A program made the translations under genes and the position numbers. A DNA stretch of 64,000 bases, taken from the IMG/VR virus record IMGVR_UViG_3300030060_007200. One strand, 5' to 3'. Below, piece after piece: positions 8,858 through 14,748 of this stretch. Source of the stretch: a virus. Position 1 is the stretch's first letter; every line of letters starts with the position of its first letter. The notes beneath the pieces were generated by a model. It was not told where the DNA came from, ran no database searches, and saw only the letters and a list, made by a program, of their open reading frames with translations.

Positions 8858-10207
8858 TCATGACTCTAGTTCTTCAAATCTTTTTTTCATTTCTTTTCTT
8901 AAATATTCTTGATGATTGTTCATTTGTGTTTTTAGCTCTTTACCTGTAACTGAATTTTCGTCAAAGATATCAAAGCTACCGTTGTTTGTATTTATCTGGC
9001 TAGGGAATGTAATACCATCAGGACCAAACCTGTTTTTAATTACGTGTATTCTACCTGTTCCGCCAACCTTATCCTCTATTTTTCTACTTAATGACATTAC
9101 AAAATCAGCAGTCATAATTTTGGAATACGATTCTGCAATTTTATCTGCCTGTATTACATCTTCTTGTAGCGCTGACCTATTTGCCTGTGATGCTGTCCAT
9201 ACCGGCACATCAACCTGACCTGCCAAACCTCTAAGTTCCTCATATATATTACCAAGCTCAAGTCGATAATCTTTGTTACCACCTGAACCTCGCAATAAAT
9301 CTGCATAATCTACAATAATCATATCAGGTTCTTTGCCTAATATTCTATATCTTTCTACATGTGACATAATTGTAGATATTGCAGCAGTTTTTGTTGGATA
9401 GTATTTTACAATAAGATTTCCTGTTATTTTACTTACATGTTCCTTTACTGTATCTATATTATATTTTAATTCTTGATTTGCTATACCTGTAATTACAGAG
9501 TCGTATCTTAAACCTACATAAGCCTCATTTAATTCTAGTGTATAATGCAAAACATTTAGGCCTTTTTTAATAGCCTGAGAACCTAGGTTTACCAACAAAA
9601 AAGATTTACCAATACCGGCCGGTGCAACAACAACGCCAAGCTCGCCTTTTCCTAAACCACCATCCATAAGATTATCTATTACCTCCCAGCCTGTAGGTAT
9701 AATGTGTCTTGTTGCCTCGGTATATCTTTCTTCAACAAGTTCTACATAATCATGTCCAACATTTCTTTCAGCGCCGGCTGTCATTGCAGTATCTATCTTT
9801 CTTTTTATATCATCATATTTGCCTGACTTTAATAATTCTACTGAATCTATGATTGCGTTTTTAAGTACTTTGTTTTTACAAAAATCAAGAGTTTGCTCCA
9901 TTACAAAGTCTAGGTCTTGTGATTCCAAATATTTATATGCGTCTTTTATATTTGATACAACACTTTTCTTAAGTACATCATCAGTTATCTCTGATATTTT
10001 AACCTTCATCACCTCAGCAGTTGGCATAGATTTATACTGCATAAAATATTCTTTTATTGTGGAAACCAAAAATTGATTTGATTCATTTTCAAAATATTCC
10101 TCATGTAGTATATCGTTTATCTGCTGTAAAAATTCCTTGCTTTTTAATAAGCATGTAATAATTTTTATTTGAAACGTATAACCAAATTCACTTAATCTAT
10201 CACTCAT
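8858..10207 (-). CDS. Replicative DnaB-like helicase (T4 gp41-like)
   Basis: APAGIGKS, YTLEL, IVDYADLL, WTASQANR, KNRFG. Confidence 0.95.
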   Translation of the reverse strand: MSDRLSEFGYTFQIKIITCLLKSKEFLQQINDILHEEYFENESNQFLVSTIKEYFMQYKSMPTAEVMKVKISEITDDVLKKSVVSNIKDAYKYLESQDLDFVMEQTLDFCKNKVLKNAIIDSVELLKSGKYDDIKRKIDTAMTAGAERNVGHDYVELVEERYTEATRHIIPTGWEVIDNLMDGGLGKGELGVVVAPAGIGKSFLLVNLGSQAIKKGLNVLHYTLELNEAYVGLRYDSVITGIANQELKYNIDTVKEHVSKITGNLIVKYYPTKTAAISTIMSHVERYRILGKEPDMIIVDYADLLRGSGGNKDYRLELGNIYEELRGLAGQVDVPVWTASQANRSALQEDVIQADKIAESYSKIMTADFVMSLSRKIEDKVGGTGRIHVIKNRFGPDGITFPSQINTNNGSFDIFDENSVTGKELKTQMNNHQEYLRKEMKKRFEELES

Positions 10208-11246
10208 AACTTTTTGCCGCCATTGCCTCTAAATGCGAAAAACATAATTTTAACCACAAGTCAGGATTTTTAATTGCTGTGTATGTTTTGTCCTCCAACA
10301 TTAATTTTTGAAATTTATATTTTACTAATCTATTTATAGGTTTTCTAACAGCGTCCATAATATAAGATTTTGTACTACCTGAGATATCAACCTCGGATAA
10401 CTGCATTAGTTCGTAATTCAACCTTATCATATCTTCGCTATTTGATATTTCTTTTATTACCTTTGATGTATCATCTGTAGTTTTTACATAATCAAGTAAT
10501 TCTTCTACAGTTATCTTTTTATCTTCAAATAATATAGGCAATCGCTTTTTAAGTGTTTTTACACCTACACCTTTTATACCAGGTATATTATCTGATGGGT
10601 CACCTTTCATTGTTCTATATAATAAATAGTTGTGAGCAGGTATTTCAAAGTCTTCATTTACAGTATTTTTGAAATAGTATTTCTTTTTTGTAGGTGACCA
10701 AACCTGAAGTCTATCGTCTACTAATTGTAAAAAGTCCTTGTCGGTTGACATTATGTATACATGACTTTTAGGATATATCTGTTGAGAAATATATGCCATT
10801 GCATCATCAGCCTCTATATTTTCTGGTGCAATTACTGTAATTGGTAGAGTGTCAAGATATTGTGTTAATCTACGAATTTGATTTTTCATAGACACACTTT
10901 CATCTTCTTGACTACTGAAGGAGTTTAGACGGGTTAACCGCTTTCTAACTTTTCTGTTGGCTTTGTACTCGGGAAAGAGTTTGCGCCTTTTACTAGAACC
11001 ACCTTTACCATCAAAACAAACAATTACTCTTGTAGGTTTGATGTTTTTAATTGCATAACCAATAGACTGCAGAAAACCCGTCATGCCTCCAATATGTATG
11101 CCGTCTTCGTTTGTACTAGGGTTGACAGCAAATGCCCTAATAAATGTATTTAATCCATCAATCAAAAGTATTCTGTCGTTTGGTGACTGATTCATAGAAT
11201 CTGTCTCTTTTAGATTTTTGAGGATATCTATATAACTTTGTTTCAT
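10200..11246 (-). CDS. 5'-3' exonuclease / flap endonuclease (T4 RNase H / Pol I N-terminal-like)
   Basis: LIDGLN, YKANR, EADD, STDKDFLQL, GDPSDNIPGIKGVG. Confidence 0.95.
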   Translation of the reverse strand: MKQSYIDILKNLKETDSMNQSPNDRILLIDGLNTFIRAFAVNPSTNEDGIHIGGMTGFLQSIGYAIKNIKPTRVIVCFDGKGGSSKRRKLFPEYKANRKVRKRLTRLNSFSSQEDESVSMKNQIRRLTQYLDTLPITVIAPENIEADDAMAYISQQIYPKSHVYIMSTDKDFLQLVDDRLQVWSPTKKKYYFKNTVNEDFEIPAHNYLLYRTMKGDPSDNIPGIKGVGVKTLKKRLPILFEDKKITVEELLDYVKTTDDTSKVIKEISNSEDMIRLNYELMQLSEVDISGSTKSYIMDAVRKPINRLVKYKFQKLMLEDKTYTAIKNPDLWLKLCFSHLEAMAAKSYE

Positions 11247-11286: not shown

Positions 11287-11796
11287 TAACGTACAAAAGT
11301 AGGCGTGTTGTTATTTTATTTCTATAAACTTAGCTTTTGCTGATTCTGACTTTGGTACAGTAATTTGTAGCAATCCATTTTCTAATGATGCGTCCAAATC
11401 TGAAAGGTTATAGTCAGGGCTAACCTTCCATCCCATATCAAAGCTTCTTCGTGCAATACCTCTATGTAAATATTGCGGTGCCTCAACGTCTGATGGGTTT
11501 GATTCTACTGATGGTTTTTTATAGGTAACCTTCAAAGTATTACCTTCTACTGAAACCTTAATTTCATCTCTTTCTATTCCGACACATGCAATGTCAAAAC
11601 ATAGAACATCATCTTGAATAAATACATCAACAGGATAATCTGGTTTTGCCTCCATAAAAGAGCCAAAATCTACATTTGTATCGAAAAAGTTTTTGAATAA
11701 TAAATCGGTGGAAAAGAGTCTCTCACCTAATAAGTGTCTTGTCATAATAAATCTCCTTAAATAATTTTTATTGTTTACGCCTACTTAAGTACGTTA
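11287..11796. repeat. 20-bp inverted repeat pair (11287-11306 / 11777-11796) enclosing hsp20
   Basis: TAACGTACAAAAGTAGGCGT versus reverse complement of the right arm TAACGTACTTAAGTAGGCGT, 18/20 identical. Confidence 0.9.
11311..11745 (-). CDS. Small heat-shock protein (Hsp20/IbpA family)
   Basis: YPVDV, YLHRGIARRSF, ASLENGLLQITVPK. Confidence 0.95.
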   Translation of the reverse strand: MTRHLLGERLFSTDLLFKNFFDTNVDFGSFMEAKPDYPVDVFIQDDVLCFDIACVGIERDEIKVSVEGNTLKVTYKKPSVESNPSDVEAPQYLHRGIARRSFDMGWKVSPDYNLSDLDASLENGLLQITVPKSESAKAKFIEIK

Positions 11797-11824: not shown

Positions 11825-12079
11825 TTAATTGTGCCAAGCTACGCTAATCATTTCTTGACCTGGCTTCCATTGTCCACCTGGTTTTCCTTTATATTTAGCT
11901 ATTTTATTTCCTGCCTTAATTTTTGATAAAGCATCATTTACATCTTTTTCTGTTTTCAAATCTCTAACAGTTATTGTGTTGTAAATATAGTCTTTTTTTA
12001 CAGGTCTATTTTTATCATCTCGTCCAACCTCTTTTGCCGTCTTCTTTACCTGCTCTAAATGTACTGTTAATCTTTTCAT
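11825..12079 (-). CDS. Hypothetical basic protein
   Basis: 4-nt overlap with upstream ORF; phage-like composition. Confidence 0.7.
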   Translation of the reverse strand: MKRLTVHLEQVKKTAKEVGRDDKNRPVKKDYIYNTITVRDLKTEKDVNDALSKIKAGNKIAKYKGKPGGQWKPGQEMISVAWHN

Positions 12080-12270
12080 AACGATTTCACTGTTTCTTTT
12101 AATTCTCTAGCCTCAGCTATTTGTTTTACTAATTTTTCACACTCTTCAACTACGCCTGGGTGCTCACCTACACCAACAGAGTTGGTCATATAATTTTGTA
12201 AGTTTGCTTTGGCTGTAGCCTCTTGTGCTTCTGCTTTTGCAATGATTGCTTTAATAATTAAATCGTTCAT
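12076..12270 (-). CDS. Hypothetical helical phage protein
   Basis: SD TAGGAG; NSVGVGEHP turn motif between helices. Confidence 0.8.
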   Translation of the reverse strand: MNDLIIKAIIAKAEAQEATAKANLQNYMTNSVGVGEHPGVVEECEKLVKQIAEARELKETVKSL

Positions 12271-12295: not shown

Positions 12296-12393
12296 AAAAG
12301 GCTCTTGGTTGGTTAAATAAATCATAATCATAAGTGAGGATTTTTAACTCTTAACATTCTACACCACGTGAAGGTGGCCTTTTTTCGTAGAAC
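12296..12393 (-). ncRNA. HDV-like (CPEB3-type) self-cleaving ribozyme
   Basis: P1 GUUCUAC/GUAGAAU with G1.U wobble; P2 AAAAGGC/GCCUUUU; P3 ACC/GGU; L3 UUCACGU; J1/4 GU; P4 with GUUAAA/UUUAAC; J4/2 CCAA(G). Confidence 0.8.
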
Positions 12394-12403
12394 TAGGTGT
12401 ATA

Positions 12404-12595
12404 TTACAACACCTTAATTACATCAGATTTCTTAACTTCAACCACCTCAAACTCTACTGAGTCATTTGCAAAGTCTTTGTTAACGATTGCCTCTGCATCT
12501 GTAACTGATACAGCCGAAACTAAATAAGCTTCTTTTTTCCAAGTAACTTTTTTACCGTTATCTGTTGCAACTTTTACTCTTGCTAAATAATACAT
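12404..12595 (-). CDS. DUF4494-like small protein
   Basis: YYLARVK...EAYLVSAVSVTDAEA pattern typical of the Bacteroidota DUF4494 family; SD AAGGAG. Confidence 0.7.
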   Translation of the reverse strand: MYYLARVKVATDNGKKVTWKKEAYLVSAVSVTDAEAIVNKDFANDSVEFEVVEVKKSDVIKVL

Positions 12596-12631: not shown

Positions 12632-12846
12632 ATAATGTGGTTGGATTCGAACCAACAGTTTTTCAAGTACCAGTTTGATAGGTAAAAACTTAAAAAAACC
12701 TAATATAGCCTCTGTACTCTTTAGAGACTTGGGGTCGGTGCTACCGCCACCGTTAAGCCGTTGACTACACGTAGTCTTGGCTGCGTCTTCCAAGATAGTG
12801 TTTTCAGGTTTTATGTGCCTGTCAACTATCATTCCGCCACACATTA
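12632..12846 (-). ncRNA. Expanded tRNA-like structured RNA (~215 nt)
   Basis: Acceptor stem UAAUGUG/CACAUUA; T-arm GUUGG-UUCGAAU-CCAAC; U8-G9 then D-arm GCGGAAU...UUGGAAGACGC interrupted by a 37-nt hairpin; several extra hairpins instead of a normal anticodon arm; no encoded CCA. Confidence 0.75.
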
Positions 12847-12851
12847 GATTG

Positions 12852-13979
12852 TTAACCTGTAGGTACGTCATCATCGCCAATAGTTAAATCGTCAATACCA
12901 ATTTCATCAGTTTTATATGACATTACCAATGTTTCACAAATCTTTTTATATATACTTTCTTTTCTTTCAGGGTTGGATAAAACCTTGTCCTCAAAATCTT
13001 TAGACAAAAACTTTATATCTTCACCTGTAATATCACAAGTATAAGTATACCAAGAGCCACCTTGTTGTAGAAGTTTATAGTCCTTCATTACTTGCAACCA
13101 GCTTCCTACATCATCAATTCCACTTTCGAAATAAATGTTGAATTCCGCTTCACGTAATGGTGGTCCCATTCTATTCTTAACAACTTTGGCTTTTGTTTTT
13201 ATACCTATTACTTGTTCCTTGCCTTGAATTTTGGCCTTTATTTGACCTGCTGCTTTCAACCTTAATCTACAGCTTGCGTGAAACTGTATAGCTTTACCAC
13301 CTGATGTTGTATATTTGTCGCCAAACATAACACCAAGTTTTTCTCTTAGCTGATTTGTAAAGATTAAGCATACTCTTTCTCTACCAATCATCTGTGTAAT
13401 TTTACGCATTGCTTTAGATAGTACAATGGCTTTTGATGTAGCCCAACCATCTTTGCTGTAGTCTGCATCTTGCTCTACTTTTGTTGTTGCTGCTGCAACT
13501 GAATCAACAACTATACTAACCAATCTATTTTTGTCTGCCTCTTTTACTTTTAAGATTATATTTTCAACAACCTCAAAAATATCTTCAACAGTTTCCAATT
13601 GTATGTATAGCATTTTTGAAATATCAATACCTATTGCTTGTAAAAACTCTTCGTTCATTGCGTTTTCAGTATCGATATAAACAGCCAATCCACCTTTTTT
13701 CTGAGTATTTGCTAGTAAGTGAGCCGCCAATAATGATTTACCTGAGGCTTCCATTCCAGTAATTTCTGTAATTCTGCCTACCGGTAAACCACCATGGGAC
13801 CTATTTGAAATAGCTAGGTCAAGTATAGATGAACCTGTACTTATCCATTCTGTTAAGTCTGTTGGTGTGTCTTCTGCACCATCAAGAAAGTATGCAACTT
13901 TCATTCCCTTAAACTGTTTGTTTAGTGAGTCAGCTAATACGCTGGCCAATTCATCTCTTTTTGTCTTGTCCTTTGCCAT
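12852..13979 (-). CDS. recA: RecA/UvsX recombinase
   Basis: GRITEITGMEASGKS, YIDTE, VVDSVAA, FTNQLR, SGGKAIQFHAS, VKNR. Confidence 0.95.
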   Translation of the reverse strand: MAKDKTKRDELASVLADSLNKQFKGMKVAYFLDGAEDTPTDLTEWISTGSSILDLAISNRSHGGLPVGRITEITGMEASGKSLLAAHLLANTQKKGGLAVYIDTENAMNEEFLQAIGIDISKMLYIQLETVEDIFEVVENIILKVKEADKNRLVSIVVDSVAAATTKVEQDADYSKDGWATSKAIVLSKAMRKITQMIGRERVCLIFTNQLREKLGVMFGDKYTTSGGKAIQFHASCRLRLKAAGQIKAKIQGKEQVIGIKTKAKVVKNRMGPPLREAEFNIYFESGIDDVGSWLQVMKDYKLLQQGGSWYTYTCDITGEDIKFLSKDFEDKVLSNPERKESIYKKICETLVMSYKTDEIGIDDLTIGDDDVPTG

Positions 13980-13989
13980 TTATTTTCTC

Positions 13990-14748
13990 CTAGTTTTCGT
14001 CATTAAATAAATCATCAAATGCAGATTCGATATTTTCAGTAGATTTTACACCTGTTGTTGTAGCCGTTGCAGTTTCTTGAACCTCTTCAGTTTCACCATC
14101 AGGATTTAACCACTCTTCAAGTACCGCTTTCAAATCATCGTAAGAGTTTTTTCTGAATATTTCGTAAATATCCTTTTGTCCTTCTACGATTTTTGATGCA
14201 ACATTAGAATCTGTAGTTGCAGCTGTTTGATTAGGCTTTACACGAATTGCAGTTTTAGGATATTGTCCAACACCTTCTGCTGGTGTAAATTCAACAACGA
14301 TATCTCTACCTGCCTTTACATCTGTAATGTCACCATAATCAGGGTCTGCTATAAAACCTAATAATTCTGTATAAACCTGCTTACCAAATCCCCAGAATTT
14401 AACACCTTCTGATTCCTGACCTCTTACAATAACAGGTACATAACATCTCATCTTAGGTGTTAGTTTCCTTGCAAGCTTAAAGTCATCTGATTTTCCAGTG
14501 TTTCTAAGTTTTTGTGCAAATTCCTCTACAGGGTCTGCCTCACCATACGTAACTGGTGATAAATAATTTTTCTTACCTAAATCATAGTGAAAATACATTT
14601 CAATAAACGGATTTTCCTTATTGTGCTGATAAGGTACGATTCGAACTTGATTTTTACCAGGTTCTGGTTTCCACAGGTTATCTTGTCTACCTGTTTGAGT
14701 TTGTAAGTTGTTTAACTTACGACGGATTGCATCTAAGTCAATTGCCAT
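13990..14748 (-). CDS. Single-stranded DNA-binding protein (T4 gp32-like)
   Basis: WKP...VRIVP, VKFWGFGK, GRDIVV, acidic tail AFDDLFNDEN; adjacent to recA. Confidence 0.85.
   Translation of the reverse strand: MAIDLDAIRRKLNNLQTQTGRQDNLWKPEPGKNQVRIVPYQHNKENPFIEMYFHYDLGKKNYLSPVTYGEADPVEEFAQKLRNTGKSDDFKLARKLTPKMRCYVPVIVRGQESEGVKFWGFGKQVYTELLGFIADPDYGDITDVKAGRDIVVEFTPAEGVGQYPKTAIRVKPNQTAATTDSNVASKIVEGQKDIYEIFRKNSYDDLKAVLEEWLNPDGETEEVQETATATTTGVKSTENIESAFDDLFNDEN

Follow-up and report, generated by a model that had tools for sequence, protein, structure and literature searches.

A predicted HDV-like self-cleaving ribozyme with a long P4 between two genes of a large myovirus, and its relatives in marine phage contigs

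The window analysed here, a stretch of 64,000 nucleotides from virus record IMGVR_UViG_3300030060_007200, encodes on its minus strand, between positions 12393 and 12296, an RNA for which the nested double-pseudoknot fold of the HDV ribozyme can, as far as the fold alone is concerned, be assigned with high confidence. Comparison of the element with its relatives suggests that it is probably also a real self-cleaving HDV-like ribozyme, splitting the transcript at this place, and that it most likely would cut a multi-gene message between two genes. Judged by its sequence signature the element is HDV-like; it differs from the theta ribozymes, being neither minimal nor attached to a tRNA 3' end, and it falls below the threshold of Rfam family RF02682. 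It belongs to a conserved long-P4 subfamily from about 140 marine phage contigs, which is apparently undescribed, though Weinberg et al. (2015) may list it.

Fold of the element and its expectation by chance

Direct reading of the sequence confirmed all of the helices and junctions that a first-pass annotation had drawn between 12393 and 12296 on the minus strand, and the helices follow the order required for the nested double pseudoknot, P1-P2-P3-P3'-P1'-P4-P2'. P1 has 7 bp (12393-12387 with 12362-12356), with the G12393.U12356 wobble at its base, and is followed by J1/2, GAA (12386-12384), and by P2, also of 7 bp (12383-12377 with 12302-12296), beyond which C12376 faces A12303. The 3-bp P3 (12375-12373 with 12365-12363) encloses L3, UUCACGU (12372-12366). 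J1/4, GUUAA, occupies 12351-12355, the GU directly after P1' being 12355-12354, and P1.1, placed by homology, would consist of G12355:C12370 with U12354 facing U12371. P4 takes up 40 nt (12311-12350): a G12350:C12311 pair and a bulged A12349 precede a 10-bp part (12348-12339 with 12323-12320 and 12317-12312, the 2-nt bulge lying at 12319-12318), which is closed by a loop (12338-12324) that starts with CUCAC. J4/2 (12310-12303) reads A-A, C12308, C12307, A12306, A12305, G12304, A12303, so that the layout contains extra nucleotides, two separating P4 from the candidate catalytic C and two separating the C-Y-R-A stretch from P2'. The predicted scissile bond, located by homology with HDV-like ribozymes, joins A12394 (-1) and G12393 (+1), and G12393 indeed lies 10 nt past the stop codon of the DUF4494 gene (12406-12404), as had been annotated. 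The window holds a single copy of the element, scored at 117 bits by covariance model R1.

Such a topology is by itself easily found in AT-rich DNA. A structure-only HDV descriptor (7-bp P1, 3-bp P3, C-N-R-A and 6-bp P2) matched the AT-rich window 17 times, so topology alone proves nothing and sequence constraints are needed. The single-sequence minimum free energy was no better than that of shuffles (z = -0.08), a value that is uninformative because the fold is a pseudoknot. The nested P1 and P3 core with an HDV-type L3 was matched once in the window, against expectations per dinucleotide-shuffled window of 0.055 with a loose L3 and 0.005 with the exact L3.

An Rfam (15) scan of the window at gathering thresholds gave no match, and the Rfam HDV and CPEB3 models gave none in the window at E values up to 10. 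The best of 4227 Rfam families was RF02682 (HDV-F-prausnitzii), at 25.4 bits and a local E of 0.0068 against a gathering score of 44, and by the Rfam criterion the element is therefore not a member of that family. RF02682 comprises bacterial and gut-metagenome HDV-like ribozymes that have a P4. P1, the GAA of J1/2, P3, L3 and a C-Y-A-A-G-A junction align between its model and the window element, whereas the model's P4 is deleted in that alignment; the RF02682 consensus also appears to share the extra junction nucleotides, which theta ribozymes and CPEB3 do not have.

Relatives, covariation and the catalytic signature

Relatives were first retrieved by scanning viral contigs for the exact 14-base P3-L3 core. 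Many of these matches were flanked on both sides by perfectly complementary 7-mers, and they fell into two classes, one minimal and theta-like, the other with a long P4 that is the same as that of the window. Later patterns fixed only P3-L3 and the first bases after P1', and returned 23 and then 54 loci in viral contigs and at least 120 in metagenome contigs, several of which are named TARA or marine. Filtering kept 141 loci among the matches listed, with about 88 distinct full-length sequences. Eleven matches in prokaryote genome contigs were set aside as chance, being mostly GC-rich, coding-like DNA; they include an Erythrobacter match (L290) that had passed a loose filter. Neither the ribozyme nor the 1.2-kb region around it had a homologue among GenBank phages by blastn, and R1 gave no real match on Flavobacterium phage immuto or Microcystis phage Mel-JY01, an 18.9-bit match in these nearest isolates being rejected as a gene-like stretch that lacks the ribozyme core letters.

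In the alignment of 88 sequences 95.2% of the cells are paired, compared with 32-49% in slid controls, and 190 cells are compensatory, compared with 42.5 in shuffles, none of 500 of which reached the observed value. That alignment was fitted by a model to P1, P3 and P4 and so favours those helices, P2 being outside the model. A MAFFT alignment of 21 sequences, to which no structure had been fitted, gave a similar picture, with 94.1% paired (slid controls 31-51%) and 16 pairs changed on both sides, a number again reached by 0 of 500 shuffles. P1 is paired in 99.8% of cells of the 88-sequence alignment and five of its seven pairs covary; for P4 the figures are 99.7% and eight of 11 pairs. RNAalifold predicts both helices unaided from the MAFFT alignment, and the column pairs with the highest mutual information are exactly those of P1 and P4. 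The covariation check in homologues asked for by the first-pass annotation was therefore positive, clearly for P1 and P4 and more weakly for P2.

Each of the six pairs in the P2 core forms in 98-100% of the 88 sequences. Compensatory events in this helix are few within the marine group: one core pair clearly covaries, from C:G to U:A, in five sequences that span several P1 and P4 backgrounds, and the pair next to P3 (12376/12303), which is mostly C.A, becomes C:G or U:A in five sequences. RNAalifold preferred a local 5-bp hairpin (12378-12374 with 12367-12363) that overlaps the last part of P2 and the first part of P3; this hairpin may represent a trap or an intermediate state in folding, and the P2 compensations argue for the HDV fold over it. 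Six distant relatives (L163, L177, L190, L217, L219, L251), found only through P3-L3 and J1/4 and mostly located on GC-rich metagenome contigs that do not look marine, have an entirely different P1 (six or seven of seven positions paired), a P2 of 7-8 bp and short P4 hairpins, while keeping the letters of J1/4 and J4/2, including A-A-C-N-R-A-G-A. These helices, unrelated in sequence and nevertheless paired, are the best support for the P2 pseudoknot.

The positions that matter for catalysis in HDV-like ribozymes vary least. G1 is G in all 88 sequences (paired with U in 82 and with C in six), and neither P3 nor J1/4 varies. The family consensus of L3 is U-U-C-N-C-G-Y, in which positions 1, 2, 3, 5 and 6 are invariant, position 4 takes A, C or U and position 7 either pyrimidine; HDV's own L3 follows the same pattern. 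The features required of L3 (U1 and G6 for the metal-binding pair and C3 for P1.1, in a pyrimidine-rich 7-nt loop closed by a 3-bp P3) are present in the letters, and as these do not vary they do not covary; P3, L3 and P1.1 hence leave no room for a covariation test and rest on homology. The letters permit the P1.1 pairs C12370:G12355 and U12371.U12354, all four nucleotides being invariant. An earlier P1.1 pairing, of G:C plus U:A with L3 positions 5 and 4, was dropped since position 4 varies among A, C and U.

In J4/2, C12308 and A12305 are kept in every one of the 88 sequences and the two positions between them vary, 12307 with 70 C and 18 U and 12306 with 66 A and 22 G; the resulting C-Y-R-A consensus fits the C-N-R-A required of HDV-like ribozymes. 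The catalytic C had been placed at either 12308 or 12307; the invariance of the former and the C/U variation of the latter leave C12308 as the candidate general acid. Catalytic positions that are frozen while their neighbours drift form the pattern expected of an active ribozyme. The CUCAC at the start of the P4 loop (12334-12338, minus strand) was also observed to be nearly invariant (C in 88, U in 82 and G in six, C in 88, A in 88 and C in 84 of 88 sequences), and mutual information gave no pairing partner for it.

The covariation of P1, P4 and P2 among the 88 homologues, together with the invariance of G1 and of the catalytic C, supports the interpretation as an HDV-like ribozyme that had been put forward from the window alone, and it bears on two other readings. 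That the element is a chance resemblance in AT-rich intergenic DNA might be argued from the 17 structure-only matches and from the uninformative folding energy, but a core with this L3 is expected only 0.005-0.055 times per window, and chance would not supply 88 distinct homologues with compensatory changes; this reading is so improbable as to be negligible. Improbable too, though less extremely, is a conserved HDV-shaped RNA that no longer cleaves and has a structural or protein-binding role, for example as a stability element or a translational operator. An Rfam score under the threshold, the unusual junction lengths around the catalytic C and the conserved CUCAC loop, which lacks an explanation, are points in its favour. 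Yet loss of cleavage would hardly be reconciled with the invariance of G1, C12308, U1, C3 and G6 of L3 and the final A of C-N-R-A next to positions that drift, nor with the retention of the catalytic residues in the distant relatives, whose helices are different. A self-cleaving ribozyme thus remains the preferred reading.

Gene context and the RNAs at the predicted cut site

The window derives from a large myovirus, encoding tail sheath, portal, terminase and a T4-type major head protein, and the family-matched genes of at least 80 aa across the 64 kb are all on the minus strand. Among isolates, Flavobacterium phage immuto and Microcystis phage Mel-JY01 come nearest, at capsid and RecA identities of about 46% and 56%, and the hosts are probably Bacteroidota, as suggested by the Flavobacterium phage that is the nearest isolate for the capsid (46%). 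On the minus strand, in the direction of reading, a gp32-like ssb gene (13990-14748) and recA (12852-13979) are followed by a non-coding stretch with a tRNA-like T arm (12846-12632), by the gene for a 63-aa DUF4494-like protein (12404-12595; Pfam PF14902, 27.8 bits against a cutoff of 27) and by the ribozyme. Beyond the ribozyme lie the gene for a 64-aa phrog_1811 protein (12076-12270), which has a Shine-Dalgarno sequence at 12281-12277 and its ATG at 12270, 25 nt from the end of P2', then an 84-aa open reading frame (11825-12079) and the genes for Hsp20 (11311-11745), a 5'-3' exonuclease (10200-11246) and DnaB (8858-10207). Consensus scans of the minus strand from recA to hsp20 revealed no promoter or terminator above noise. 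P2' with the U-run was considered as a terminator and rejected, the U-run being shortened where a tRNA directly follows.

The non-coding stretch after recA (12632-12846, minus strand) contains a canonical tRNA T arm (12656-12640) and a 7-bp acceptor-like stem, and neither ARAGORN nor Rfam called a tRNA in it. Of 20 distinct loci with the DUF4494 context, five have a strict T-arm motif some 260 nt before the ribozyme.

Across the family the ribozyme is intergenic and in the sense orientation relative to its neighbours in 112 of 113 loci, and it is single-copy in every locus searched. The upstream gene encodes DUF4494 in 38 loci, and the other commonest setting is RecA - ribozyme - 5'-3' exonuclease (30 and 24 loci); these settings indicate a fixed place in a replication-recombination cluster, around which small genes come and go. 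With at least 17 gene families upstream and at least 17 downstream, the element is not tied to any one gene. Two related phage contigs also carry a permuted tmRNA (L006:500-707 and L125:1905-2113, both minus strand; Rfam RF04321, 56-66 bits).

In the window a small hairpin, here called the clamp, abuts the cut site (12395-12414, minus strand). Its 6-bp stem (12414-12409 with 12400-12395) ends 1 nt before the predicted cut and its 8-nt loop contains the DUF4494 stop codon. Relatives with the DUF4494 context keep this stem through G:C, G.U and A:U states, although one of its arms is coding. Among 102 distinct flanks, 51% have a contiguous stem of at least 7 bp that ends 0-3 nt before the cut, compared with 26% at control positions, an enrichment that is only moderate since the control is high. 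The abutting stem may keep upstream sequence from mispairing with the ribozyme, as 12400-12396 could otherwise pair with 12365-12361. Translation of DUF4494 and cleavage may also influence each other, since a terminating ribosome at 12406-12404 would occupy both the hairpin and the beginning of P1.

Other structures were observed at the same boundary. In six loci (L132, L134, L146, L148, L150, L260) the cut is preceded, at a distance of 1 nt, by an 18-bp hairpin that shows compensatory changes. At least 17 distinct loci carry directly upstream of the ribozyme a structured RNA of about 85 nt (L125:8596-8683, minus; L115:10621-10706, minus; L277:2198-2283, plus; and 14 more), whose closing stem ends 0-1 nt before the cut and whose inner hairpin closes an invariant loop of 14 nt with a 4-bp stem that covaries. 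This RNA is absent from the window and has no match in Rfam, and it is found downstream of the ribozyme as well in L226 and L246.

Proposed function and comparison with known HDV-like ribozymes

Based on the conserved fold, the sense orientation and the abutting stems, the element is proposed to be a transcript-splitting module that would uncouple the fates of the two RNAs that flank it. The region would be transcribed within a message running from recA and DUF4494 through hsp20 to the exonuclease gene, and the RNA would fold as P2' emerges, with C12308 acting as general acid and the G.U pair of L3 holding a Mg2+ ion. With the chain cut between A12394 and G12393, the upstream DUF4494 message would end in a 2',3'-cyclic phosphate 1 nt after the small hairpin, and the downstream RNA would have the compact ribozyme at its 5'-OH end, 25 nt before the next start codon. 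Cleavage, the chemistry of the ends and any effect on stability or translation are what we infer from homology and context, and for the specific consequences of splitting on stability and insulation the case for and the case against appear evenly balanced.

A broader proposal is offered tentatively, as one that would sooner fail than hold: the ribozyme and its abutting stem could form a portable RNA-end-forming cassette of marine Bacteroidota-type myophages, taking the place of terminators and host RNases and leaving hairpin-capped cyclic-phosphate 3' ends upstream and a protected 5'-OH leader downstream. If so, the upstream RNAs capped in this manner would include mRNAs (that of DUF4494 here) and, elsewhere, the uncatalogued 85-nt non-coding RNA; the theta-ribozyme idea would then cover mRNAs and new small RNAs as well as tRNAs, and a role would be suggested for the many non-tRNA phage HDV-like ribozymes that the theta study left unexplained. 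This provides a concrete hypothesis, of mRNA and small-RNA end formation by self-cleavage. The marine subfamily, with its full P4, its fixed place in the gene cluster from recA to the 5'-3' exonuclease gene and its covarying cut-site stem, is a clean comparative data set, and R1 can be used for annotating these elements, which go unrecognised by Rfam 15 at curated thresholds.

Two rival views of the function have to be set against transcript splitting. One accepts that the element cleaves and places the selected function mainly downstream, in a structured 5'-OH leader that stabilises phrog_1811 and the following genes or assists their translation, the upstream end being a by-product. It is possible, though on the unlikely side. 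Spacing speaks for it, since the next start codon keeps at least 16 nt from the ribozyme, following it by 16-30 nt in 49 of 112 loci, and the window itself has a Shine-Dalgarno sequence and its ATG 25 nt downstream; so do the seven loci in which a tRNA begins 1-14 nt after the ribozyme. The HDV-like ribozymes of the R2 and L1Tc retrotransposons, and the synthetic RiboJ insulator, cut off upstream RNA and remain as a 5' leader, and the phage element might be a natural equivalent of either. The analogy is functional only, these systems being eukaryotic or engineered and having no sequence relation to the window element. The downstream genes, on the other hand, belong to at least 17 unrelated families and lie 61-400 nt away in 46 loci, RNase P would in any case remove such a leader from a tRNA, and the covarying stems and the 85-nt RNA on the upstream side of the cut would be left unexplained.

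The other view, for which there is very little probability, is of a theta-type ribozyme trimming the 3' end of a tRNA or tRNA-like RNA. Its basis would be the P3-L3 core in common with theta ribozymes and the tRNA-like T arm about 260 nt upstream. In the window, though, there is no tRNA and the cut site lies 10 nt past a protein stop codon, no tRNA 3' end lies in the 60 nt upstream of the cut at any of the 141 loci, and P4 is long where theta ribozymes are minimal. The annotated contrast with the theta group, of a long P4 and no direct fusion to a tRNA, thus holds. Of these views of the function, transcript splitting between two protein genes is the favoured account of the element.

Theta ribozymes are HDV-like, cut tRNA 3' ends, and come from gut phages in more than 80% of cases (Kienbeck et al. 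2024, PMC10879173). They cleave in vitro and are inactivated by a C-to-U change at the catalytic position, and their trimming of tRNA 3' ends in gut phages is the one published role of phage HDV-like ribozymes; the same study assigned no function to over 500 non-tRNA examples (PMC10879173). The window element has in common with them an HDV fold in phage DNA, a 7-bp P1 and a sense orientation to its neighbours, and, for the delimited theta examples in Supplementary Data File 1 of PMC10879173, an ACC/GGU P3, an L3 ending in C-A-C-G-U and a J4/2 starting with C-Y-A-A. It differs in most other respects. Theta ribozymes lack a P4, with an L4 of about 6 nt, whereas the element has a 40-nt covarying P4 with a conserved loop; their P1.1 is CC/GG rather than the G-C plus U-U predicted here, with a 3-nt J1.1/4, and they do not have the two extra nucleotides before the catalytic C or the two after C-Y-R-A. 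They cut within 5 nt of a tRNA 3' end, whereas the element would cut 10 nt past a protein stop codon and in 0 of 141 loci has a tRNA 3' end at its cut site, and they occur mainly in gut phages while the present subfamily occurs in marine contigs of myophages.

The likeness to the CPEB3 ribozyme stated in the first-pass annotation proved correct: in CPEB3, L3 is U20 U21 C22 A23 C24 G25 U26, and G37 U38 follow P1 (10.1101/2022.09.22.508989). Along with L3 UUCACGU and the GU after P1, the element and mammalian CPEB3 have in common a P1 of 7 bp and a P3 of 3 bp, and the letters of the element allow the P1.1 of CPEB3, with one G-C and one U-U. CPEB3 differs in having no J1.1/4, a short P4 and a J4/2 that runs straight into P2, and it is intronic in mammals. 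Outside the core the likeness ends, and common constraints of the fold are its most probable cause.

Among phage HDV-like ribozymes, the literature searched contained only gut theta or minimal forms and one Ackermannviridae example. The latter, from a gut-derived record and taken from Weinberg et al. 2015, has been crystallised, has a P1.1 with a U-U pair and yet cleaves fast, and loses activity on a catalytic C-to-U change (Luo et al. 2026, PMC13635239). It resembles the window element, as far as descriptions can be compared, in phage origin, in having a P4 and in the U-U predicted for P1.1, and belongs to a different phage group. Its fast cleavage implies that a U-U pair in P1.1 is compatible with an efficient ribozyme.

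Additional HDV-like ribozymes were seen in the collected contigs (L010, L020, L063, L008, L051 and others). These have a minimal form or a short P4, an L3 of UUCACGU and a perfect 7-bp P1 that varies in sequence. In the part of the theta supplementary data that the comparison covered (PMC10879173), an L3 of UUCACGU was not found, the examples there reading U-CC-ACGU with GG after P1', and to that extent these small ribozymes may fall outside the theta motif. Some of them adjoin tRNAs, and L051 carries two copies.
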